Positions 3,754-41,884 of a stretch of 64,000 bases of DNA are shown here, piece by piece. The notes below the pieces were generated by a model. It searched no databases and was not told the DNA's origin. It saw nothing but the letters and a program-made list of their open reading frames with translations. The DNA comes from Naegleria gruberi (lineage: Eukaryota). The DNA is taken from assembly GCA_000004985.1 (NCBI GenBank), contig GG738851.1. One strand, given 5' to 3'. Made by a program: the position numbers and the translations under genes. Numbering within the stretch: position 1 is the stretch's first letter; every line of letters begins with the position of its first letter.

Positions 3754-5496
3754 ATGGGAAAAAACTTTCGTAACAAAACATTGCCATCGGCCAATACCAG
3801 TCATTCGATGGCCTCGCCATTGCAAATCCCCTTTTCAGCTCGTACTTCAAATCAAAAGTCGCCAAAACATTATCTCCTTCCTAAACATTATCAAGAGATT
3901 GTCAAGTATTTTGTATCGAAGGAGAATACAAGTGATTTGGCTTTGATCTTGTTGAAAAGGTTATTCTCTCCTTCCGATTGGAAAATGTATTATTTTGATT
4001 ATAAAGAGTGGAATGAAAATGTTACAGAGTGTAGGAAAGATCTGAGAAAGATGATTCAAATGGGAACATTGCAATCACTCTTGAGAGGAAAGTATTTTGT
4101 GGAGGATTTGACTATAGTTCCTGTTGAACAGGTTGAGGAGGAGACACAAATTCCTATTCATGAGAGAGTGTTCGTGAGAAAGCCATACGTTCCGAGGAAG
4201 AAGGAAGAAGAAATAGTTGAGGAGGAACCAGAAACTAAAAAGAAAAAGAAGAGGAAGAATAAGAAGGTTGATCCAGAGGCTGAATTTGAATTGACTGCTG
4301 AGGAATTGGCGCATGATGGAACATTTGAAGGATTTGAAATTATGGGAGAGGAAGACAGACCACCTTTGGATGAAATTATCATGTTGAACGAAAGAAATTT
4401 GAAAAAGGATCCTAAAAAGGATAAAAAGGATAAAAAGAAGGTCACCAAACCAACATCTAAAAAACCTGAGGAAGAGGAGGAAGAAGTTTTCTTCTTTGAT
4501 GATGGAATTCCAGAAAAAGAAATTCCAGTCACTACAATTCATTTGGATTTTAATGCCATCAAGAAGATTTCAAGCTCTACCGAGCTCATTGATTGTGCAG
4601 AATTGGAATCTGTTGTACAAATATCTAAAAAGATGAATACAAAGGAAAATCAAACAACCAAAACAATATTCCAAGTAGTTGAAGGAGATATTTTGGAAGC
4701 AGCATTGGCCTTGAAGAAAAACTCAAAGGTCAATCCACTCGTGCTTGTCAGTGCAAGCCAAAATATCCCAGGTGGTTTATATGATAAGGGAGGAAATACA
4801 CAGGAAGAGGATATGTGCCGAAGAACTTCTCTAGCACTTTGCTCTGCTGATCCATATAGAATATCAGGTCGTACGTGGTTTTATCCATTGCCAGAGTTTG
4901 GAGGAATCTATGTAAACAATTGTCTCGTGATTAGAAAATCAAAATATGAAGGATATGCATTCTTGGAAAAGCCTACCAACATGTCAATGTTCTTATTGAG
5001 TCCTATAATTAATCCTCCAACAGAGAAGAAGAAATTAGTGGCAACAGAAAATTCTGGAGATGCAACTTCTGAGCCAGAATATGAATATTTCCTTCCTGCT
5101 AAACTCACAACCACAATGAAAAAGAAGATTGCCTCCTATTTGGAAGTTGCACTCAGTAAGGGACATGATGCTTTGGTACTGTCTGATTTTGGTTGTGTGA
5201 ATTCACATTCTAATCCTTCCTATCACATTGCCTCACTCTTTAAGGAAGTTCTAATGAGCGACTTGTTTAGAGACAAATTCAAGCATGTCTTATTTGCCAT
5301 TACTCTAGACACTGAACCAGACAGCAGATTGACCAGTATTATTGAAGATGTCGATGAAAGCTCAACAGTCGTCAGACAGGAAAGTTATGAAATTCAAAAG
5401 AAGAACAATCTCACCATCTTTTCTAAAATATTCAACAATAGTGAATCTGCACCAACTGTAGATGAACATTTCAAAAAGATCAAAGAATCATTGTAA
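3754..5496 (+). CDS. Macrodomain-fold protein of the bacterial-type PARG / DUF2263 family, with a long Lys/Glu-rich N-terminal extension
   Basis: The C-terminal half contains LVLVSASQNIPGGLYDKGGNTQEEDMCRRTSLALC. This fits the PARG signature GGG-x6-8-QEE as GG-x8-QEE, and the following EE-x-CR-S-L pattern is typical of DUF2263. The N-terminal part is low-complexity K/E-rich. Confidence 0.55.
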   Translation: MGKNFRNKTLPSANTSHSMASPLQIPFSARTSNQKSPKHYLLPKHYQEIVKYFVSKENTSDLALILLKRLFSPSDWKMYYFDYKEWNENVTECRKDLRKMIQMGTLQSLLRGKYFVEDLTIVPVEQVEEETQIPIHERVFVRKPYVPRKKEEEIVEEEPETKKKKKRKNKKVDPEAEFELTAEELAHDGTFEGFEIMGEEDRPPLDEIIMLNERNLKKDPKKDKKDKKKVTKPTSKKPEEEEEEVFFFDDGIPEKEIPVTTIHLDFNAIKKISSSTELIDCAELESVVQISKKMNTKENQTTKTIFQVVEGDILEAALALKKNSKVNPLVLVSASQNIPGGLYDKGGNTQEEDMCRRTSLALCSADPYRISGRTWFYPLPEFGGIYVNNCLVIRKSKYEGYAFLEKPTNMSMFLLSPIINPPTEKKKLVATENSGDATSEPEYEYFLPAKLTTTMKKKIASYLEVALSKGHDALVLSDFGCVNSHSNPSYHIASLFKEVLMSDLFRDKFKHVLFAITLDTEPDSRLTSIIEDVDESSTVVRQESYEIQKKNNLTIFSKIFNNSESAPTVDEHFKKIKESL

Positions 5497-5558: not shown

Positions 5559-7868
5559 ATGTCTCACTATCTCAGGTCAACACCATTATTGTTGCCCTCT
5601 CTCAACAGCAAACCATCAACACTATTAAAACAATTGGTAGCCAAGGAGGATTCTGCAACATTATATCTTCATCCTCCGAATATTATTACCACAACAACAA
5701 CAGAGAGTGATGCATCCGAAACCCTTCTCGATGTTTACAAAATTAAACAAAAATTGGGTGAAGGATCTTTCGGTCAGGTTTATCTTGCAAAGATAAAATC
5801 GACAAAGGAAAGATTAGCACTCAAGAGAATTGTGACGAATTTGAGTGGAGATGAAACTGAGGATGAGACCGAAAAGATTATTTATGAAAATTTGCAGGAG
5901 TATTATACATTGCGTGATTTGAAAGATCATCCAGCCATTGTGAAGGTAAAGGACGTCTTTCTAATGAAGGACAAAGCATCACAACAGATTGGTCATGTGA
6001 GCTATTCTATGAAATTATATGAACATGGAAGTTTATTCGAATGGATTACTAAAAGAAAGGGAAGTAACAAGAAGATGGATTTTAGAATTTTAAAATCAAT
6101 CATGATTCAATTGTGTCTAGTATTGAAATTTATCCATCAAAAGGGTTTACTTCACAGGTGAGTATTAAAATTATAGAAAAATGGATGTTAATTTACTGTG
6201 TACAGAGATATTAAACCAGCCAATATCTTTATTGATTACTTGAAGACGGAAAAGACCTTCCTTCCAGAGGAATATTTCAAAGAGGAAGAATCTTCAATAG
6301 TTGTAATTTTGGGAGATTTTGGAACTGTTAGAAAGTACAATGAAGGATCTATGGTTCAAACTACAGTTGGATCCCAAATGTACATGTCACCTGAGATTTT
6401 ATATGGTGAAAATTATCAAGTGGATGCAGATGTTTGGTCTCTGGGAGCTTCTCTATTTGAACTTGCTACTTACAAGCCAAAACCAATAGCAATGATGCTC
6501 TACAAGAGAGAAGGTCCCACAATTAAAAAGAATTTGGAGGATGCTCTGCTCTTGAATAATGAATATATCAAGACAGAACAAGATTCTAATGATTGTTTGG
6601 AATTTATCAATTTAATAATGGACATGTTCACTCTGGAAGTTTCTAAAAGACCAACCATTGAAACCTTGCTCTCCTCTCCATGTTTAAAACCTCAATTAGA
6701 TAGAGTACTACTAATCACTTCCCAATACACCTCCCAAATGATTCAGGAAGAGAATGAGCTATTAGTGAAATTGGTAGAAGATTTGAAATACAATGTCACA
6801 TCAACTTCCTCTCAAGGATTGAAAACATTTATGAAAAAGAACCTTCTGGCAACCACAAAGGATAATGATGGCAAAAAGAATAATCTCTTACTTGTGGCAA
6901 GTTGGTGGAGTTCTAACTTGAGAATATTCCCGGTAGCTCCACAAAATGAAAATTCGCCTTTGGAAATATCTAATGTTCCCTACATATTGGAATTGAAATC
7001 AGATATAACCTGTGAACAAATGATGCCAGTAAGTGAGAGTGAGGTCATTCTTGGATTGCAATCTGGAGAAATTGTTAAAATTAGAAGAGAGGGCTCTCAT
7101 TCATTCAAGGAAATTTCCAGATTGAATGCACACAAGCATCGATTGAAATGCTTTAGACAACTCAATGATCAATATTTTGCTTCTGGTGCCTATAACAAAT
7201 CGGTAAAAATTTGGGATCTCACAAACTTGGAATGTGTTCAAACATTTAAACACGAAAGTGGACACGTCTTTGCGTTGGCTAGTACTAACTCATCAAGGAG
7301 TATACAAGAAACGTCCTTGTTCAGTGTTGGAGCAGATATGAGTATTTATGAATGGGATTTTGAAAAGTGTTTACAAAAGAGAGAAAAAGCTCACTCTGAT
7401 GAAATTTACTCCTGTCTCTACAATTCAAACAGTTCAATCCTCTTGACAGGATCTTTCAAGGAACTAAAAGGATGGGACAAGAGACAACATCAACCAATTA
7501 TCAACTTTTCACCTCATTCAAACTATATTAACAAAATTGTTGAAATTGAAAAGAGCTATGACGGACAGGAATTTAGAGATGGAAATCATTTCATTACATG
7601 CTCTAATGATGGATTTATCAAATTGTGGGATGTTAGAAAGTTACCAAGCAATAGCTCCACTTCATCTACCGACCAAGAATGCAAGTCGTTCAAAGTCAAC
7701 CTGGATGCTATCAAGACACTCCATGTTTATTCCAATACTATTTTCTATGGAACTAAGAGAGGTAGGATGGGAACACTTGATTTGAAAACTTTCACATCTA
7801 TCAAAACCTACAATGCCATTAAGGGAGTCGTTGGTGTAGTAGATGTTTCATCCATACAAATGTTGTGA
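5559..7868 (+). CDS. Ser/Thr protein kinase with C-terminal WD40 repeats; two exons joined across a 48-nt intron at 6158..6205
   Basis: The Gly loop is LGEGSFGQVY and the beta3 Lys lies in LALKRI. The catalytic loop LLHR|DIKPANIF is rebuilt only after removing the GTGAGT...TACAG intron, which is phase 2. DFG (ILGDFG), SPE, and the WD motifs SVKIWDL and GFIKLWDV are present. Confidence 0.8.
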
Positions 7869-8930: not shown

Positions 8931-10304
8931 TTAAAAGTTAATAGAGGCAGAACATCCCTTAGTAAGTAAGACAATGATTGGATAAACTGGCAATTGGAGT
9001 CCTTGTAAGGAAAATCTTTGTTGTGCTCCTTGCCTTATGGTGAGGGTTTTTGTGTTGCAATCAACTTCACAAAATATTTCATTAGAGTCAACAAAGTCCA
9101 ATCCTCGCAGAGTATTATTGAGAGTCTTGTCAGAACAAGAAAAGACATATCTATTACTTGTGAGAACGTCATAGTTGTGGTTGTTGAATGGAGATTTAAA
9201 ACATGTAAAATCCTTATTATCAAATACAGACTTTTGACAAACACCAATACCAATCCATTTACAAATATTTTTCAAGTCAACTCTCCACTCTACAACTCCT
9301 TCACTAATCTTCATTGAACTAATTACTACAGAATGTCCAGAATATGAGGTTTTGGTAAATAAATTTGCTTCTTTTGTAACATTATCTCTGTCATAGTAAA
9401 ATTCATCAGGAATAATATCTTGGATTGGATCTAAATGGCGATTGAGAAGGTAAGTAGTTGATGGAATATTAGCATTCACTCTTCCCAAATTTTCAATTGA
9501 ATCCAAAATTACTTTAAGCTTGTGTTTGTCACTTTCCAAACAAAAGTTGTTCAATTGTTCTGCACTACTAAATCTCAAATTGTTTTCCATCTTGTCATAG
9601 GTGCTATAAATTTTCTTTTGTAACAATATCTTGTTTCTAATCAGATCAATCTTTGACATTTCTTCAATTTTATCAATATTAATAAGAGCTTCCTTTTCAA
9701 TTACTTGCTTCATTTCTAAAATCTCTGTAATCAAGTTAATTCTTTCCACGGCCATGTCATTTAATGACTTTTTCAAGTATTCTCTTCTACTATTGGTCTT
9801 GTTAATTACTTCATCGAAGAGTTCATCAATTAAATCCATCTCAGCAATTTTTCGAATTTCAATTTGATGTAGTGTTTCATCCAATTTTGCACTCCCACCA
9901 ATCAAGTTATCAAATTGCAAAACTCTCTTTTGCAAGGTTTCCAAATCGACTCGGAATTTAATTTTCTCTTCATTGTAAATTTGATCAATCAAGAAACAAT
10001 CATGCAATTTATGCATCTCCAAACCACAAGCAGAACAAATAACTTGTTGACAATTTTTACAATAAGTATTGATCGGACAAGCATGAACATGACAAATTTC
10101 ATGATGATTCAAAATTAAATTATTAATTGGTAATGATGATGAATTATTATGCATCAATTCTTCCACAACGTGATCGGGATGTTTCTTTGCATGTCTCTTT
10201 CCATCACCAGAACAATAAAACAATCCACAATCATTGCAACGATATTTAGCCTCCACATGTTCACTCAAATCATCCAAACAAACCGAACAACTTTCTACTC
10301 GCAT
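8931..10304 (-). CDS. Zinc-finger (B-box-like) coiled-coil protein, TRIM-like without a RING domain
   Basis: The N-terminal C/H-rich modules are CSVCLDD...CNDCGLFYC...H..H and CHVHACPINTYCKNCQQVICSACGLEMH. A long heptad-rich coiled coil follows, then a beta-rich C-terminal domain. Confidence 0.5.
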   Translation of the reverse strand: MRVESCSVCLDDLSEHVEAKYRCNDCGLFYCSGDGKRHAKKHPDHVVEELMHNNSSSLPINNLILNHHEICHVHACPINTYCKNCQQVICSACGLEMHKLHDCFLIDQIYNEEKIKFRVDLETLQKRVLQFDNLIGGSAKLDETLHQIEIRKIAEMDLIDELFDEVINKTNSRREYLKKSLNDMAVERINLITEILEMKQVIEKEALINIDKIEEMSKIDLIRNKILLQKKIYSTYDKMENNLRFSSAEQLNNFCLESDKHKLKVILDSIENLGRVNANIPSTTYLLNRHLDPIQDIIPDEFYYDRDNVTKEANLFTKTSYSGHSVVISSMKISEGVVEWRVDLKNICKWIGIGVCQKSVFDNKDFTCFKSPFNNHNYDVLTSNRYVFSCSDKTLNNTLRGLDFVDSNEIFCEVDCNTKTLTIRQGAQQRFSLQGLQLPVYPIIVLLTKGCSASINF

Positions 10305-10509: not shown

Positions 10510-12219
10510 ATGTTTGACAAGCCAAGTAATCTCTGCTCTCAGTCTTTTGATATTGAAAAACAAGTTTGCTTTTCCAACTCCTCTGATACTGATGTGGTCG
10601 ATTTGTTTTGGATTGATTATTCGGGTGCTGAGGTTTTTATTAGTACCATTGCTCCAAAGCAACAAGTTGGACAGAAAACCTTTGCTACTCATCCCTTCCT
10701 GATGAGAAGTTTATTGAGCAGAAAGATTGTGGGCTTGTTTGTGATTGATGAGCAATTGCCCGATCGATCAACATTGAAATATGGTGAAAATAATTATAAT
10801 ACAAGTGGCAACAGTAAAAGTAGTGGTGGAATGATTCCTACACCTGGTGATGCTCCACCTCGTTTGTTTGAAAAGATTACTTATAGAAATAGTATTGTAG
10901 GAAGTCAAGATCAATATTATGGTTTGAAATCAGCAACTGGAACTTGGCCTGCAGAGCTACATGTAAAGAATAGAACTGGACATAATTTGGAGTCTTATTG
11001 GATTGATTTTGAAGGTAATTTGAGAAGTTATGGAATTTTGGATTCTGGAAAGAATTTTGATAGTATGAGTGGACATGGTCATATCTTTCTTTTCAAAACT
11101 CCTGATGGTTCCTATCAGAAGATAATTACTGCCTCATCTGAAAAACCTTCTCAATTCCTCGATCCTGATGAAATTGAAATTACTGCCTCAGTGATAGATT
11201 CACCTTCAGAAACTAGTTGTCACTCTATTCTTGAGAAGCATATTCAAGGAAGGTGTGGACGTGCACTCAAGTTTTTCACTGAACCTCACATTGATCGGAT
11301 CATTTCAGAAATTGAAACCAAACTCAAACAAGAAGGAAAACGATTCATTGATGAAGACTTTTTCCCAGGAGATAATTGGAAGAGAGCTAGTGATTATTTC
11401 AAAAATCAAGCCAGTATTTTCAAAGGTGATATTTCTCCAAAAGCACCAATACAAGGAGGAGCAGGTGATTGTTGGTTAATCCAATCAATGAGTGGAGCAG
11501 CCACCTTACCAGACAAGATTAAGGAAGTATTTTGCAAGTGTGAACATATTGATCCATCATTGGGATTGTTTGTCTTGTCTTTCCATTCAACAGATGGTTC
11601 AAAAATATTCATTCTCTTGGATGATTACTTTCAATTTACATCAACCAATTTTAAATGTTCAAGGAGTAGTACAGTTGGAGAATTGTGGGTTCCGTTAATT
11701 GAGAAGGCATTTGCAAAACTGTGTGGAAGCTTTGAATCCCTTCATCCAGTTGTTGGAAATCATGGTATTAATCCTGCTGAAGTGTTGTTGTACTTATTAA
11801 GCGGCAAAAATGGTAAAAACATTCAATGGTACTCTGCTGAGGGGAAAACTATAATCTCTCAGGGAAAATTCTATCCACTCGTGGAGAGTTTATTGGACAG
11901 TAAAAAGAGCGTACCAGTCTGTACCAGTAATGCTAATACCAAGGAGGGCTATGTTGATGAGTATGGAATTGTTCACTATCATGGATATTCCATGTTGGGT
12001 TATAGAAAATATCCTCAACACGGCATCAATCTTCTCCACATAAGAAATACATGGTCCAAACAGGAATGGAATGGTTTGTGGTCTGATAATTGTGTACAAT
12101 GGGCCAAATATCCTGATATTGCCAGTGAACTGAGAAGTGTTTCAGAAGATGGATGCTTTTGGATATCATATGATGATTTTGTAAATCACTTTTGTGTACT
12201 TTGGTGGAATGAATTTTAA
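10510..12219 (+). CDS. Calpain-like cysteine protease with two N-terminal VHL beta-domain-like repeats
   Basis: The catalytic Cys motif is QGGAGDCWLIQSMSGAA, the His lies in VHYHGYSMLGY and the Asn in IRNTWS. Upstream are two repeats, SNSSDTDVVDLFWIDYSGAEV...THPFLMRS and KNRTGHNLESYWIDFEGNL...GHGHIFLFKT. Both fit the VHL beta pattern N.S...V.L.W.DF.G....Y......H.WLFR. Confidence 0.75.
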   Translation: MFDKPSNLCSQSFDIEKQVCFSNSSDTDVVDLFWIDYSGAEVFISTIAPKQQVGQKTFATHPFLMRSLLSRKIVGLFVIDEQLPDRSTLKYGENNYNTSGNSKSSGGMIPTPGDAPPRLFEKITYRNSIVGSQDQYYGLKSATGTWPAELHVKNRTGHNLESYWIDFEGNLRSYGILDSGKNFDSMSGHGHIFLFKTPDGSYQKIITASSEKPSQFLDPDEIEITASVIDSPSETSCHSILEKHIQGRCGRALKFFTEPHIDRIISEIETKLKQEGKRFIDEDFFPGDNWKRASDYFKNQASIFKGDISPKAPIQGGAGDCWLIQSMSGAATLPDKIKEVFCKCEHIDPSLGLFVLSFHSTDGSKIFILLDDYFQFTSTNFKCSRSSTVGELWVPLIEKAFAKLCGSFESLHPVVGNHGINPAEVLLYLLSGKNGKNIQWYSAEGKTIISQGKFYPLVESLLDSKKSVPVCTSNANTKEGYVDEYGIVHYHGYSMLGYRKYPQHGINLLHIRNTWSKQEWNGLWSDNCVQWAKYPDIASELRSVSEDGCFWISYDDFVNHFCVLWWNEF

Positions 12220-28788: not shown

Positions 28789-31700
28789 ATGACCACCAAG
28801 GTACAATTAGTAAGGGATGCTTCTCTGGCTTTTCAACAAAAAAAGTACGATGAATGTTTGAAAATAATTTCGCACGATGAACATCATGAATCATCATTGC
28901 CTTGCTCGGAAGAGTTGGGGATGGACATCAAGTTAGGAACCATTGTGGGAATGTGTCATTATAACAATGCTGTTATTCAAAAAGAAATGGCAAAGGAATT
29001 GTTTGATAAGGCTTTGATTCAATTTGATAAGGTCATTTCTCAATATAGGGAATATGAAAATACTGTACATCAAGATCAAGGAAATGTCAAATCAATTGTT
29101 GAAAATAACATTGGATTGGAGGTTTTTATATCTACAACAAAGGTTAATTATTTGGCAGGTCTTTGTCATTTATATAGTAACAGGTACAAGGATGCTATAC
29201 CTTATTTTAGTAGTGCTGCTCTTATGGCCTCAACCTTACAGAGTAATATTGGATATGTGGCCAATAAGGATCATGCCAAATCTTTCCTTAAAGAGTCACC
29301 AAAGTACTATTTAAATCGAGGAATCTGCTACAATGAGTGTAAAAATAATGAGTTGGCAGAGAGGGATCTTGTCAAATATGTGGCACTAATTGAAACATCT
29401 GATTTGAGTCCAGACACTCAAGCACCTCTCTTATTTGTTGCGTTTACTAGTTTAGCAAGCACAAAATTAAACAAGAATCAACAAGAGGATGCAATCAAGT
29501 ATTTCAATAAGGCCATCGATTCTTTCAACGTAATGGAACCGGATGCCCAACAGGTACATTTTGAAAACTGTGTTAAGGCTAAACTCAAAAGAGCCACAAC
29601 ACTTCAAAAGTATATTAGTTACCATGTGTATAACTGTAAGGAAGATGCAAACCTTATGAAAGTAATTGAAAGTTATAGAAAAATGGCCTCTGATGATTTG
29701 GAAACCGCAAGAAAATACAAGAGACTCGAGTTTTATTACTTGTACCAATATGTAAAAATGATAGTGATGTTCTGCAAACATGTGGAAGGACTCATTGAAA
29801 AAGATGAATTGGTACCTCTCTATCAAGATGCTGCAGACAAGTTGCAAGAATGCATTTCAATTCAACCAAAGAATGCAAAATTGTACGGGGACTTGGCATT
29901 GTGTAAGAGCAAGATTGGGAAAGAAAAATTGGAAGAAATTTTAGATTTGTACAATAAGAGTTTTGAATTAACCAATGGGGAACCTACGGATAAGGTATCT
30001 AAGCAAAAGTTGGCCAGGATTTATTTCGAAAGATCTGTCATTTATTTCAAATTATCCAATACTGATAAGGCCAAACAAGATTTGGATAGAGCTATTCGTT
30101 TGAATCCATACTTTTCAGATGCTTACTACAATAGAGGTTTTTTATTGAAGGATTCCGAAGATGATATTGAACAAACTTTGGACGATTTGGGAGCAACCTG
30201 TGAAATGAACCTTGAGGACACTGAGTGTGCATTTCTTACGTAAGTTGATTGGTATTGTTCAGTTTGATTGTAATTATATATAGTGCCATTATTTTAGCAA
30301 AACAAGAAAACAAGGAAGGTAGTCGTTCCATTGTCGAAGAATTCATCAAGTTTAACCCTAATGATTCCAATTTGAAAGATCTTTTATTAGCTCTTAATAA
30401 CGAGGGCAGTTTGGATGCATTTGAATCCTTACCTAAATTCAGAGAATCCCACAAGAAGAACAAACTCTGGACACCTAATAGAAAAACAAAACCAAGTCTA
30501 GACAGAGCATCAATTAGAAATAGAGTTACAAGTGCCAAACTCGACGAACAAGACACTGATGATGGCTATTATTGTGATCCAACCTTCCCAGCAGTGTCAA
30601 AATCAATCTACGGAACAGAGGATAGTGATTTACCATCTGAATTGACTTGGTACAGAACTTGGGACTTGTGTTTCCTCAGAGAAGAGTCCCAACTTTTTGT
30701 TGATGGTACAAGCAATACTGATATCATGCAAGGTGGTATAGGTGATTGTTGGTTACTTTCTGCATTTTCAATTGTTGCTGACTATCCAGATATCATGAGT
30801 AAGATTATATTGGAGTCAAAATCAGATCCAGATAACGGAAAGTATGTCTTTTCCATTTTCGGAAAAGAAGGCCCCACAGAAGTAGTTATTGACAATAGAT
30901 TGCCATGTTTTTCTGATTCGGGAAGTCTTGCATTCTCCAGGAGTGGAACCTCAAACGAAATGTGGATTTCCTTATTAGAGAAGGCATATGCTGCGTATTA
31001 TGGAAGCTACCAAGCACTTCAAAGTGGTTACATGAGGGATGCCCTTGTTAGTTTAACAGGTGGAGTTCCTTTCACTCTTGATATCAGTGTAGAAAACAAG
31101 GAGGAGGTATGGGAAATCTTAAAGACTATTAAAAAGAAGAGCACTGATCCCTCATCATACTGCTTAATGGGATGTAGATCTGACAAGGCACCAGCCAGAA
31201 CTGGTATTCAAACTCACCATGCCTATGCAATTCTGGATTGTTTCGACTGTCCTCTTGAAATGACCAATGGAAAGAGAACTCGTCTTGTCAAACTTAAGAA
31301 TCCATGGGGTTATGGTGGTGAATTAGAATCTGGAGATTACTCTGATGATAGTAAGTGGTGGACTAAGGAGCTCAGGAAATATGTTGGACATGAATCAAAA
31401 ATTGATGGCATTTTCTTCTTGACTTTGGGGGCACTTGTTAAATATTATACGCAAATTCAAGGAGTAAGGATTTTTGATGAGGAGCATTGGAGTATAGCAC
31501 GTTTTGTGGATGAATTCAAGCAAAAACCTGGACATGACTTGGATGACTGGGGCCTAGATATTTGTTCTTTCTCGTCTCATTATGTTATTCACAACACCCA
31601 CGAAGACAACAAGCTAGTAATTGAACTTTCTCAAAAAGACACCAGATTTACAAGAGATCAAAAAGAAGAGTTCAAATGTGTTGCCATTTATGTATTTAAA

Positions 31701-31946
31701 TATCCTGAAAGTCAATTCAATGGCGAAGAAAGCACCAGGTTAGCAACAATTGGTGAAGAGAATGAAACTGTCGTTCAGGGTATCTACGACGGTTGTTACA
31801 GTGAAACAAGCATTGAGACAACACTACCTGTTGGCCATTATGTTGCAATTCCAGCTGAGCTTTACTCTAAGACACCAACAGAGAAACTTTCACTCAAAAT
31901 TATTTCAAGAAAACCTGTCACTATTGTTAGATTGCCTGTTCAATAA
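28789..31946 (+). CDS. TPR-repeat / calpain fusion protein; exons at 28789..30239 and 30284..31946, with a 44-nt intron at 30240..30283
   Basis: The 484-aa TPR-like ORF ends in a stop created by the GTAAGT donor. Splicing to the TATATAG acceptor joins it in frame (...ECAFL-T-AIILAKQENKEG...) to the calpain ORF. The catalytic triad motifs are QGGIGDCWLLSAFSIVA, HHAYAILDC and KNPWG. Confidence 0.7.
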
Positions 31947-32947: not shown

Positions 32948-34504
32948 ATGGTAAATTCTGCAAGGGAGCATCAAGAAGGTTTATTTTCCAACGACGTTTG
33001 TTTTGAAATATTGTCATTTCTTGATGGTTGGACTATTATTCGAAACTGCGCTTTAATTTCTAAACAGTGGTTTGAAATTATTAGAAATTATTCGAAACTT
33101 GATCTTGAGGTAATGAGTAAACTTTCCACGGAAAGAATCACCATGTTATCCGAAAGTCAATTCTTGAATAGAATTATTGGCTTCAAAGTTGGAAAGTATG
33201 CAGCTTCCGAATTTGTATTATTCGAAAGCTCAAACCTTGAACAATTATGGGAAACTATTGGTTCAATGTCTCAATTGACTAAACTTGATGTTGGCAAGAC
33301 TGGATTACATACTTTTCCCATTTCAATTTTACCTAATTTGGAAAATTTAACAGAATTAAACTTGACATTTTTGGAAATATTTGACCAAGGAGCAAAAATA
33401 ATAAGTCAACGATTGAAATTCATAACCAAACTCAGCGTCGATTATTGTGGAATTGGAATTGAAGGAGTACAAGCAATTGGAAATATGAAACAATTGACTT
33501 TTTTGAATATTAGTGAAAATGAAATGAGAAATGAAGAGATTGAATTGATTGGAACACTTGATCAACTCAAATATTTGAGTATTCGAAATATTACACGTGA
33601 GAATAACAGTGTTGATGATTATCTAGATTTTAATTCTCTGAAAAATCTGAAATTGTTGACCTACCTCAATATTGGTGAAAATAGAATTTCAGATGAGATT
33701 GGTTTACAATTTTTGAGAGAAATGAAACAATTGACTCATCTCAATGTTGCAAACATGGAAATTGGAAGTATTGGGGCTAAAATAATCAGTGAAATGACAC
33801 ATTTAGTTAAACTAAATATTGGACGAAATGATATTGGAAGAACTGGAATTGATTATATAGGTGAAATGAAACAATTGACCTCATTGAATGTTCAAAACTG
33901 CAATTTAATGGAATGTAAATTTTTATGTGGAATGAAACAATTACAATATTTGAATATTAGCGAAAATACAATTAGAAATGAAGGAGTGGATTTAATTTGT
34001 AAAGAACTATCTCAATTGAAATTTCTGAACATTTCTGAAATATTGTCAAGACCCTATCAATTTAGAAATGTACTCCCCATAAAATTGGAGAATTTACCTC
34101 GCCTTAATCAATTAACTGAGCTCGATCTTAGTAGTGATCGAGTGAATGAAGAAAGTTTGATTTTTCTTCTTGAATTGAAATGTTTAACCTCACTGAATGT
34201 CAGAAGAAATAGCATTACTTGTAATTGTGCTAAAATCATTAGTGGAATGAGCCAATTAACCAAACTGAATATCAGTGAGACACAAGTTGATGAATTGGTG
34301 ATGGAATATATTTGTGGAATGAAAGAGTTGCGAGTGTTGTATATGCAAAAGAATTATTTAGAAAATGATTCAGAGGTTGTTGACTTGATTGAGAAAATGG
34401 AAAGTTTGACTGAACTTGATATTAGTGATTGTTATATCAGTATTGAAAATGAAACCAAATTAAGAGAAATTAAGAAATTAAGGAAGCTTGTATTATTTGC
34501 TTAA
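32948..34504 (+). CDS. F-box-like / leucine-rich repeat protein (RNI-like LRR family)
   Basis: The N-terminus FSNDVCFEILSFLDGWTIIRNCALISKQWFEII is F-box-like. It is followed by about 15 LRRs of the L..LN(I/V)..N.IG.EG type. Confidence 0.75.
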   Translation: MVNSAREHQEGLFSNDVCFEILSFLDGWTIIRNCALISKQWFEIIRNYSKLDLEVMSKLSTERITMLSESQFLNRIIGFKVGKYAASEFVLFESSNLEQLWETIGSMSQLTKLDVGKTGLHTFPISILPNLENLTELNLTFLEIFDQGAKIISQRLKFITKLSVDYCGIGIEGVQAIGNMKQLTFLNISENEMRNEEIELIGTLDQLKYLSIRNITRENNSVDDYLDFNSLKNLKLLTYLNIGENRISDEIGLQFLREMKQLTHLNVANMEIGSIGAKIISEMTHLVKLNIGRNDIGRTGIDYIGEMKQLTSLNVQNCNLMECKFLCGMKQLQYLNISENTIRNEGVDLICKELSQLKFLNISEILSRPYQFRNVLPIKLENLPRLNQLTELDLSSDRVNEESLIFLLELKCLTSLNVRRNSITCNCAKIISGMSQLTKLNISETQVDELVMEYICGMKELRVLYMQKNYLENDSEVVDLIEKMESLTELDISDCYISIENETKLREIKKLRKLVLFA

Positions 34505-40531: not shown

Positions 40532-41884
40532 ATGATGATCAATTACGAATCAGTCTCCAATTCCATCAATTCCTCCCATTCCACAATATTCTCTGATGAT
40601 ATTTGTTATGAAATTCTATCCTATTTCCATGAGGAAAATGATGGAAAATTTATTCTACTAAATTGTTCGTTAATTTCCAAACAGTGGATGATGAATGTGA
40701 AGAAATTCGGAAAGATTTCAATTAATATTCGAAATAGAGTTTCGGATTCATTGATAGAACCAATCAAGAGAAATCAATTTTTGGAATGTTTTGTGAAATT
40801 TGGAATTTATTCGCAAGATTTCAAGTTTCATGAAATAATTAAAATGATGAAGAATTTAAAAAGTCTTTCTATTGGAAATTGTTCTATTGGAGAGGAGGAT
40901 TTGAAATTTATCGGAGAAATGAATCATTTAACTGAACTTGAATTGTGTGAATGTTTGACTGGAGATAAAGATATTAGACCAATTAGTAGAATGTCTCAAT
41001 TGACTAAATTAAATATTAGTAAGAATGCAAAATACCATTTAAGCGATATCTTTGACATGAAGCAATTAAAAATACTAGAAATTGGAGAAAATTTCATAGG
41101 AGATGAACAAGCTGAACTGCTTTCCAATCATTTGAAACAATTGACCATTTTACGAATTAATAACAACTTAATTCATTCTCAAGGTGTTAAACATTTGAGT
41201 AAATTGGATCAATTGACTGAATTAGATTTAAGTGGAAATGCTTTTAATGATACAATTGGCTCTGAAATTGCAAAAATGGAACAATTGAAAACTCTTCACG
41301 TTAACAAACTTGCAAGACATCGAATGGGATCACGGTTGGGTTCACAATTTGGAAACTTATTTCAATTGACCAGTCTTAGTATAAGTAATAATTATATTGG
41401 AGATGAAGGAGCCAACGAAATTAGTAATTTAACACAATTGACTGAATTATATGTACATGGAGCTGAAATTGGATATAGAGGAGCCAGATCATTAAGTGTT
41501 TTACACCAGTTGACCAAACTAGATATCAGTACAAATCATATTGGAGATGAGGGAGTTAGATTATTCAAACAATTATCAAAATTAACAGAACTTGTTGTGT
41601 TTAATAATAGAATTGGAGATGTTGGAGCACAACTTATTAGTGAAATTCCTCAATTGACCTCTCTTGTTGTTAGTAGCAATCAAATTGGAAACGAAGGGGC
41701 AAAATCAATTAGTCAAATGTCAAAATTGAAATATCTTTCGATTAATGGAAATCAAATTGGTGATCAAGGAGCTAAATTATTAAGTGAAATGAATCAATTA
41801 AGAAGAATTGAAGTTTATGGAAATAATATTAGTAATGAGATATTTCAATTATTTGGAATTAAAATTCAAAATAAATTGAAATAA
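40532..41884 (+). CDS. F-box-like / leucine-rich repeat protein (RNI-like LRR family)
   Basis: The N-terminus IFSDDICYEILSYFHEENDGKFILLNCSLISKQWMM is F-box-like. About 14 LRRs follow, for example LTELDLSGNAFNDTIGSEIA and LTSLVVSSNQIGNEGAKSISQ. Confidence 0.75.
   Translation: MMINYESVSNSINSSHSTIFSDDICYEILSYFHEENDGKFILLNCSLISKQWMMNVKKFGKISINIRNRVSDSLIEPIKRNQFLECFVKFGIYSQDFKFHEIIKMMKNLKSLSIGNCSIGEEDLKFIGEMNHLTELELCECLTGDKDIRPISRMSQLTKLNISKNAKYHLSDIFDMKQLKILEIGENFIGDEQAELLSNHLKQLTILRINNNLIHSQGVKHLSKLDQLTELDLSGNAFNDTIGSEIAKMEQLKTLHVNKLARHRMGSRLGSQFGNLFQLTSLSISNNYIGDEGANEISNLTQLTELYVHGAEIGYRGARSLSVLHQLTKLDISTNHIGDEGVRLFKQLSKLTELVVFNNRIGDVGAQLISEIPQLTSLVVSSNQIGNEGAKSISQMSKLKYLSINGNQIGDQGAKLLSEMNQLRRIEVYGNNISNEIFQLFGIKIQNKLK

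Follow-up and report, generated by a model that had tools for sequence, protein, structure and literature searches.

We describe a gene of the amoeba Naegleria gruberi that places two tandem domains resembling the beta domain of VHL, the von Hippel-Lindau protein (the animal protein is pVHL), in front of the protease core of a calpain. The gene lies in a 64,000-nucleotide stretch of contig GG738851.1 (GenBank assembly GCA_000004985.1; hereafter, we refer to this whole stretch as the window), and we refer to the gene and its relatives as VHL-calpains. Nearly all that is known of VHL, a tumor suppressor in humans, concerns its part as the hydroxyproline reader in the HIF oxygen sensing of animals and as the workhorse E3 receptor for proteolysis-targeting chimera (PROTAC) drugs. 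Our best reading of the sequence is that the tandem VHL modules probably target a non-classical calpain; that they select its substrates, as opposed to regulating or localizing the enzyme, also seems rather likely to us.

The gene is a complete single-exon open reading frame (ORF) whose product is 100% identical, over its full length, to a ‘predicted protein [Naegleria gruberi]’ (P0001), to which public databases have already attached the VHL and Peptidase_C2 Pfam domains. An earlier note on this DNA, made from the letters alone, had placed a protein of 569 amino acids (aa) at 10510-12219; we find the same ORF there, and both peptide strings that it quoted are present in the translation. The main parts of the gene are as follows.

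10510..12219, + strand: VHL-calpain gene with two VHL-like domains, from the ORF list; ATG start, 569 aa, single exon, stop codon included
10522..10779, + strand: VHL beta-domain-like copy 1, residues 5-90; Pfam VHL 23.4 bits when scanned alone; envelope 4-89 by a single-domain hidden Markov model (HMM); AlphaFold2 strands 16-90, with a predicted local distance difference test (pLDDT) score of about 90 or more; codons checked
10912..11163, + strand: VHL beta-domain-like copy 2, residues 135-218; Pfam VHL 21.1 bits when scanned alone; HMM envelope 135-218; AlphaFold2 strands 147-217, pLDDT 89-96
11338..12216, + strand: calpain (C2) protease core, residues 277-569, from Pfam Peptidase_C2 and PDB calpain cores
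11470-11472, + strand: catalytic Cys321 (GDCW), aligned to C115 of the rat calpain-1 core 1tl9_A; invariant in the VHL-calpain family; codon checked
11980-11982, + strand: catalytic His491 (YHGYS), aligned to His272 of calpain-1; codon checked
12046-12048, + strand: catalytic Asn513 (IRNTW), aligned to Asn296 of calpain-1; codon checked

Two VHL-like beta domains at the N-terminus

Pfam VHL (PF01847) matched the protein over two stretches at E 2.4e-9 (37.5 bits versus a gathering cutoff of 21), and both copies also passed that cutoff when scanned singly. Across three Naegleria species, VHL was the top Pfam match for 6 of 6 copies in single-copy scans, with the two N. lovaniensis copies falling slightly below the cutoff (19.1 and 18.9 bits). 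Searches that did not start from the Pfam model led to the same family. By phmmer, pVHL chains matched copy 2 over residues 139-212, and a 55-row profile seeded on residues 1-238 and run against all PDB sequences returned pVHL only (24 distinct sequences, E 5e-13), the alignment of profile and pVHL reading LRS...FxN...WLNFDG...Y..LPPG...SYxGHxWLFRD. When a seven-member family alignment was compared with human VHL by hhalign, the probability was 95.8% and the E-value 6.8e-9.

The predicted fold agrees with these matches. An AlphaFold2 model of residues 1-238, built on the 55-row alignment, has a mean pLDDT of 78, with 129 residues at 90 or above, and consists of two seven-strand beta domains with a disordered linker between them. 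A Foldseek search of the PDB gave pVHL for 50 of the 50 matches listed (E 1.7e-7 to 4e-6, probability 1.00), over 87-93 aligned columns and at a root-mean-square deviation of 2.6-4.2 A. The two N-terminal repeats resembling the VHL beta domain that the earlier note had proposed are therefore borne out both by HMMER against PF01847, which is significant for both copies, and by the model, in which two VHL-like beta-sandwiches stand before the calpain core. As judged from sequence and model together, both N-terminal domains are true homologues of the VHL beta domain, the resemblance being well above what chance would give. The two copies are ancient: compared directly with each other by BLASTP, they share only a WIDxxG core (E 0.034).

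An intact calpain core with incomplete Ca2+ sites

Pfam Peptidase_C2 (PF00648) covers residues 289-562 at E 9.4e-42 (143.5 bits versus a cutoff of 23.8), and the best solved relatives of the core in the PDB are the protease cores of calpain-9, -3, -1, -2, and -8 (E about 1e-23). The catalytic triad (C321, H491, N513) is intact and, in our alignments, kept in the orthologues; the complete catalytic core with Cys, His, and Asn motifs that had been read from the letters alone is confirmed by the Peptidase_C2 match and by the alignment of the triad to calpain-1. The protein terminates at the end of the core (‘...VLWWNEF*’), and a Pfam scan of all 569 aa gave only Peptidase_C2 and VHL, with no match to a C2-like domain (domain III) or to a penta-EF-hand domain (domain IV). 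Because it ends right after the core and has neither of these domains, the protein is a non-classical, core-only calpain.

In calpain-2, the Ca2+ ligands of the core are I89, G91, D96, and E175 at site 1 and E292, D299, Q319, and E323 at site 2 (PMC4631099). We mapped ligands onto the N. gruberi protein by combining this residue list with an alignment of its core to 1tl9_A, as follows.

Calpain-2 D96: A312, lost (Ser or Ala in N. fowleri and N. lovaniensis; Asp in P0050, P0051, and P0071, which are introduced below)
Calpain-2 E175: E391, kept
Calpain-2 E292: E519, kept
Calpain-2 D299: D526, kept
Calpain-2 E323: C549, lost (Ile in P0050 and P0071)

D547 aligns with Asp331 in mu-calpain numbering (Asp321 in calpain-2 numbering), a residue that we take to be a further site-2 ligand and that is absent from the list used above. 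With Asp331 added to the five listed positions, two of six side-chain ligands are replaced, and both core Ca2+ sites would thus be incomplete. Since these two ligands are replaced, classical Ca2+ regulation of VHL-calpain is doubtful, or at the least probably weakened, and we infer a non-classical mode.

Conservation of the fusion

Both N. fowleri (P0002) and N. lovaniensis (P0003) have the same architecture at full length, with 47% and 46% identity, respectively. To look further afield, we ran an exhaustive HMM search with the N-terminal profile against 1.84 billion representative proteins, which gave 753 proteins at E of 1e-3 or better, and took the carriers of a calpain core from the best 150 of these 753 matches. 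Among those 150, calpains with two VHL-like domains are P0071 (551 aa), P0050 (549 aa), and P0051/P0161 (369 aa, truncated), at 31-33% identity to the N. gruberi protein; P0030, a 260-aa fragment with 38% identity, has one VHL-like domain and P0042 (533 aa, truncated) has three. The Pfam VHL scores in P0050 and P0051 are 62-68 bits. In P0042, the three repeats lie between an N-terminal calpain segment, ‘FIDPFF...W.LVR’, and the QGxxGNCW active-site helix. This protein starts with MGQENSK, a possible N-myristoylation signal, and its metagenome contig (L002) has 28% G+C, so that its source organism differs from Naegleria.

An ETSCH motif, a KRFIDEDF sequence at the entry to the core, and a C-terminal WWNE are common to the VHL-calpain family, and because they are shared, the sequences are consistent with a single origin of the fusion. 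The metagenome contig that encodes P0071 (47 kb) also carries eukaryotic genes (Ras, Arf, Med26, guanylate cyclase, and enolase). Among named organisms, its enolase comes closest to those of Acrasis kona (72%), Percolomonas (68%), N. fowleri (67%), and Willaertia magna (66%), and for this reason we assign the contig, on its sequence, to an uncultured heterolobosean. The earlier note had left it to a search for orthologues to say whether the fusion is conserved; it is, in N. fowleri, in N. lovaniensis, and in environmental homologues at 31-38% identity. VHL-calpains form a small family, heterolobosean where the source can be placed (Naegleria and the P0071 contig), and the N. gruberi gene is not a one-off.

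A conserved pocket in the VHL-like domains

In the pVHL-HIF-1alpha structures (1LM8, 1LQB), we take S111 and H115 to hydrogen-bond the hydroxyl of hydroxyproline, whose ring lies against W88, Y98, and W117. We mapped these positions by using hmmalign to align 13 of the family's domain copies with human VHL, a comparison of sequences alone.

Human VHL W88: copy 1 W34, copy 2 W164
Human VHL Y98: copy 1 I44, copy 2 Y174
Human VHL S111: copy 1 T57, copy 2 S187
Human VHL H115: copy 1 H61, copy 2 H191
Human VHL W117: copy 1 F63, copy 2 F193

Across the 18 domains of nine VHL-calpain proteins, the positions of W88, H115, and N78 are invariant, that of S111 is always S or T, that of W117 is always F or W, and that of Y98 is Tyr in 11 of 18. 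Very similar frequencies are found in 353 other VHL-like domains (144 proteins), which come from bacteria and other eukaryotes, with W88 in 96%, S or T at 111 in 98%, H115 in 90%, W or F at 117 in 97%, and Y98 in 63%. Conservation of this kind argues for a conserved ligand-binding mode and does not name the ligand. The remark in the earlier note that the VHL beta domain recognizes hydroxyproline thus stands in part: the protein is consistent with it in sequence (W88, S111 as S/T, H115, and W117 as F in both copies, with Y98 in copy 2), but the pocket is kept family-wide, so hydroxyproline is not singled out.

Tandem VHL-like repeats are common outside animals, in bacteria and protists, usually in two or more copies. 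Giant bacterial proteins of 1,700-2,000 aa (P0012-P0016, P0018), from sources that include Rhodobacteraceae/Paracoccaceae (the WP_111431135.1 cluster) and from metagenome-assembled genomes of Bacteroidia, have 8-10 Pfam VHL stretches together with beta/gamma-crystallin-like regions, and our own single-domain HMM counts 12 VHL-like domains in P0012; these giant proteins also keep the pocket residues. Other strong matches include a ‘VHL beta domain-containing protein’ of Stratiformator (Planctomycetes), a chytrid protein in which Pfam marks five VHL stretches and our single-domain HMM seven domains, a Paulinella protein with SAM, TIR, and three VHL domains, an annelid protein, and proteins secreted by the type IX secretion system (T9SS). 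In a Pfam survey of the partners found in 128 VHL-like proteins, Peptidase_C2 was the commonest, with 5 of 128, followed by CAP, RicinB lectin, MACPF, Laminin_G_3, DUF5050, and Por_Secre_tail with 2 each; the pairing of VHL with Peptidase_C2 is non-random. The earlier note had called a duplicated VHL module fused to a protease an unusual architecture. This holds for the calpain partner, which is distinctive, but not for the duplication itself.

A proposed mode of action and its ligand

In the mechanism that we propose, VHL-calpain would be a probably cytosolic, core-only calpain in which the two N-terminal beta-sandwiches serve as the targeting part of the enzyme. Each VHL-like domain would present a pocket (Trp, Ser/Thr, His, aromatic) of the kind that pVHL uses for hydroxyproline. 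By binding a short peptide or ligand that a substrate or partner carries, the modules would deliver it to the active site of the calpain, some 100-300 residues downstream, such that recognition would be coupled directly to limited proteolysis and not, as in animals, to ubiquitination. The protein is predicted to be intracellular, as no hydrophobic signal is seen at its N-terminus. A 4-hydroxyprolyl peptide is a plausible ligand, which we put forward tentatively. The conserved fusion suggests a protease that reads the same mark as animal oxygen sensing. In its most specific form, which we regard as unlikely, VHL-like domains in heterolobosean amoebae would read prolyl 4-hydroxylation and hand the marked protein to the attached calpain, making an oxygen- and 2-oxoglutarate-dependent switch that bypasses ubiquitin.

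Several observations weigh against a targeting role of this kind, or against hydroxyproline as the mark. Copy 1 has no equivalent of Y98 (I or V in Naegleria), and W117 is replaced by Phe in both copies. The pocket is the hallmark of the whole VHL-like domain family and not special to VHL-calpain, and many of the domains that share it are found in a secreted or surface setting (Por_Secre_tail, RicinB, MACPF, CAP, Big_1). A full-length AlphaFold2 model built from three sequences has a pLDDT of 38 and does not give the orientation of the VHL-like domains relative to the protease, and the N-terminal model, with a predicted template modeling (pTM) score of 0.47, has no confident inter-domain contacts. 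Literature searches for a prolyl 4-hydroxylase of Naegleria found nothing, the Naegleria proteome itself not having been searched.

The alternative that survives best, and that we consider possible though doubtful, is that the VHL-like domains are generic ligand binders that recognize an unmodified peptide motif, a glycan, or a small polar group and mainly localize or scaffold the calpain, with no oxygen-dependent mark involved. Because VHL-like domains with the same pocket are widespread in bacteria and protists, the ligand need not be hydroxyproline: the pocket recurs in the giant repeat proteins of Rhodobacteraceae, Bacteroidia, and Planctomycetes, in T9SS-secreted proteins, and beside lectin, MACPF, and CAP domains, where hydroxyproline is not an obvious ligand. 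A pocket of Trp, Tyr, His, and Ser is also typical of sugar-binding sites. In the same direction, the VHL beta domain has been noted in retron type X systems, where its prokaryotic function is stated as unknown (PMC7736814). However, pVHL, the sole family member with a known ligand, binds hydroxyproline through residues that are conserved here, and since the calpain is predicted to be intracellular, a glycan ligand becomes less obvious.

The linker, the ETSCH motif, and the missing adaptor part

Two further features lie outside the three recognized domains.

10798..10905, + strand: low-complexity, proline-containing linker between the VHL-like domains, residues 97-132; predicted disordered, pLDDT below 50
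11209..11223, + strand: ‘ETSCH’ motif, residues 234-238; a predicted helix begins here, after VHL copy 2 and before the calpain core

Residues P110, P117, F120, K122, and Y125 of the linker are invariant in the three Naegleria species, and a similar P...P-x-[LF]-x-[KE]-[IV] pattern is present in P0050 and P0051. This pattern might act as a short linear motif, perhaps one that a VHL pocket binds within the same molecule, or it may be just an edge strand. A second alternative, which we rate as distinctly improbable, builds on the former option: the VHL modules would be autoregulatory, docking on the protein's own proline-containing linker or on the core and holding the enzyme inactive until release, in place of a Ca2+ switch. 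Such an arrangement would supply the other control that a core needs when it has lost two Ca2+ ligands (A312, C549) and has no EF-hand. It would also fit both the retention of P110, P117, and the linker pattern across distant members despite predicted disorder and the position of the VHL repeats in P0042, which are inserted in the N-terminal calpain segment near the active-site helix. The case is purely inferential, however: the linker motif may be no more than a strand of the second domain, the versions with one and three VHL-like domains offer no comparable geometry, and neither the N-terminal nor the full-length model predicts confident inter-domain contacts.

The last alternative is that the architecture is an artifact, either because the gene model fuses two neighboring genes or because Pfam matches a low-complexity region rich in beta structure by chance. 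It has the near-cutoff single-copy Pfam scores of N. gruberi and the lower ones of N. lovaniensis in its favor. We reject it with near certainty, as a single ORF runs through all the domains and no stop codon interrupts it, the same architecture recurs in three species and on independent metagenome contigs with stronger VHL scores (P0050 and P0051), and profile, hhalign, and structural searches return VHL alone.

Seven family members, the most distant at about 31% overall identity, all keep S236 and C237 of the ETSCH motif, and the motif matches no known domain. The BC-box, through which Elongin C is bound, has the consensus [STP]LxxxCxxx[AILV]. With its Cys, the ETSCH motif bears a superficial likeness to this box. 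We rejected the idea that its helix is a degenerate form of the BC-box or of the VHL alpha domain, since four residues upstream, where a BC-box has its essential Leu, stands Ser, Thr, or Asp, neither VHL_C nor a SOCS-box is matched, and the hhalign alignment stops earlier. Specifically, the 80 aa that follow copy 2 gave no match to VHL_C or SOCS_box in any of four family members, even with E-values up to 10 admitted, nor did either appear in the Pfam scan of the whole 569-aa protein, and the hhalign match to human VHL 58-213 spans only 64 beta-domain columns and ends before the ETSCH region. By these sequence criteria, VHL-calpain is a homologue of the VHL beta domain and not a member of the CRL2-VHL receptor family.

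Gene neighborhood

The window, which the full-length identity to P0001 marks as nuclear DNA of N. gruberi, has 33-34% G+C and is densely packed with long ORFs separated by short spacers, together with seven tRNA genes. These are scattered among the protein genes between 28375 and 60226 (Lys-CTT twice, Trp, Ile-AAT, Val-TAC, Pro-TGG, and Pro-GGG). A divergent neighbor, 205 bp upstream of the VHL-calpain gene at 8931-10304 on the - strand, encodes a 457-aa Cys/His-rich protein with a sub-threshold match to a B-box zinc finger (19.7 bits versus a cutoff of 24.1); its central part looks by eye like a coiled coil, which would make it TRIM-like. Farther upstream on the + strand, 5559-7868 encodes a protein kinase domain spread over two ORFs (5559-6161 and 6198-7868, presumably separated by a short intron) and followed by a WD40 beta-propeller, and a 580-aa ORF at 3754-5496 (+) carries a microbial-type poly(ADP-ribose) glycohydrolase catalytic domain (PF10021, E 4.7e-16). 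The window also holds two genes with leucine-rich repeats, at 32948-34504 and 40532-41884.

A second calpain gene lies 17 kb downstream of the VHL-calpain gene, at 28789-31946 on the + strand. It comprises a TPR-repeat ORF (28789-30243) and a Peptidase_C2 ORF (30249-31946, E 8.7e-66), joined via a 58-nt GT...AG intron at 30241-30298. Its domain order and the total length of its parts (about 1,049 versus 1,037 aa) make it look like the N. gruberi TPR-CysPc-C2L calpain D2V3V2. Different protein-binding modules thus precede different calpains in Naegleria. We also considered whether VHL-calpain is a recent duplicate of this neighbor and rejected the idea, as the two share only about 30% identity over 135 residues.

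Significance

The conserved, naturally occurring joining of two VHL-like readers with a protease, far from animals, provides a directly testable system for the ligands of the VHL fold outside Metazoa, and one in which to ask whether hydroxyproline-dependent protein destruction exists without ubiquitin. If VHL-calpain does read hydroxyproline, recognition of a hydroxyproline degron by the VHL fold would predate animals and derive from a widespread microbial module, and animals and Heterolobosea would have linked the fold to a destruction machinery independently of each other, the former to a cullin ligase and the latter to a calpain. The pocket residues are kept in hundreds of uncharacterized bacterial and protist VHL-like repeats, which makes this a neglected domain family. 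As N. fowleri, the brain-eating amoeba, has an orthologue, the protein may also be of practical interest.

Comparison with known systems

The literature that we searched, including full-text searches for the orthologues' locus tags (FDP41_010723, C9374_010385) and for VHL in combination with Naegleria, contained no description of a VHL-calpain. Two surveys devoted to calpain architecture list only TPR and plain-core calpains for N. gruberi, D2V3V2 being the TPR-calpain that they catalogue, and make no mention of VHL as a calpain module (PMC3563603, PMC4631099). The architecture is visible computationally, since public databases already attach both Pfam domains, though apparently undescribed in the searched literature.

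Among the closest comparisons is pVHL, substrate receptor of the E3 ligase CRL2-VHL. Both proteins have the PF01847 beta domain, a seven-strand beta-sandwich, and share the signature LxS...FxN...W(I/L)(D/N)(F/Y)xG...Y..LxPG...(S/T)(Y/F)xxHx(W/F)xF(K/R). Of the pocket positions, those of W88, S111, H115, and W117 are kept in VHL-calpain and that of Y98 in copy 2 only; the substitutions are S111 to Thr and Y98 to Ile in copy 1 and W117 to Phe in both copies. In contrast to pVHL, VHL-calpain has two tandem beta domains instead of one, a non-metazoan host, and no detectable alpha domain or BC-box, so that no recruitment of Elongin C/Cul2 is predicted, and its effector is a covalently attached cysteine protease, not a ubiquitin ligase.

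Among calpains, the MIT-calpain-7/PalB group and the N. gruberi TPR-calpain likewise have an intact Cys/His/Asn core after a protein-binding module, and likewise have no penta-EF-hand. VHL-calpain differs from them in that its module is VHL-like and in the absence of a C2-like (calpain III) domain, and its core is about 30% identical to that of the neighboring TPR-calpain. The classical calpain-1 and -2, on the other hand, have a C2-like domain III, a penta-EF-hand domain IV, and complete core Ca2+ sites, none of which is found in VHL-calpain.

Tandem VHL-beta-repeat proteins of bacteria and protists belong to the same family and have the same pocket as VHL-calpain. Elsewhere such repeats have other partners or none (beta/gamma-crystallin, TIR, lectins, and secretion tails, or the IHF-VHL pairing of retron type X), whereas among the proteins surveyed only a small family in Naegleria and uncultured eukaryotes couples them to a calpain. 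What is new can therefore be described from either side: as a calpain with a previously undescribed targeting module or, equally, as a reader of VHL type that has a protease attached in place of a ligase.

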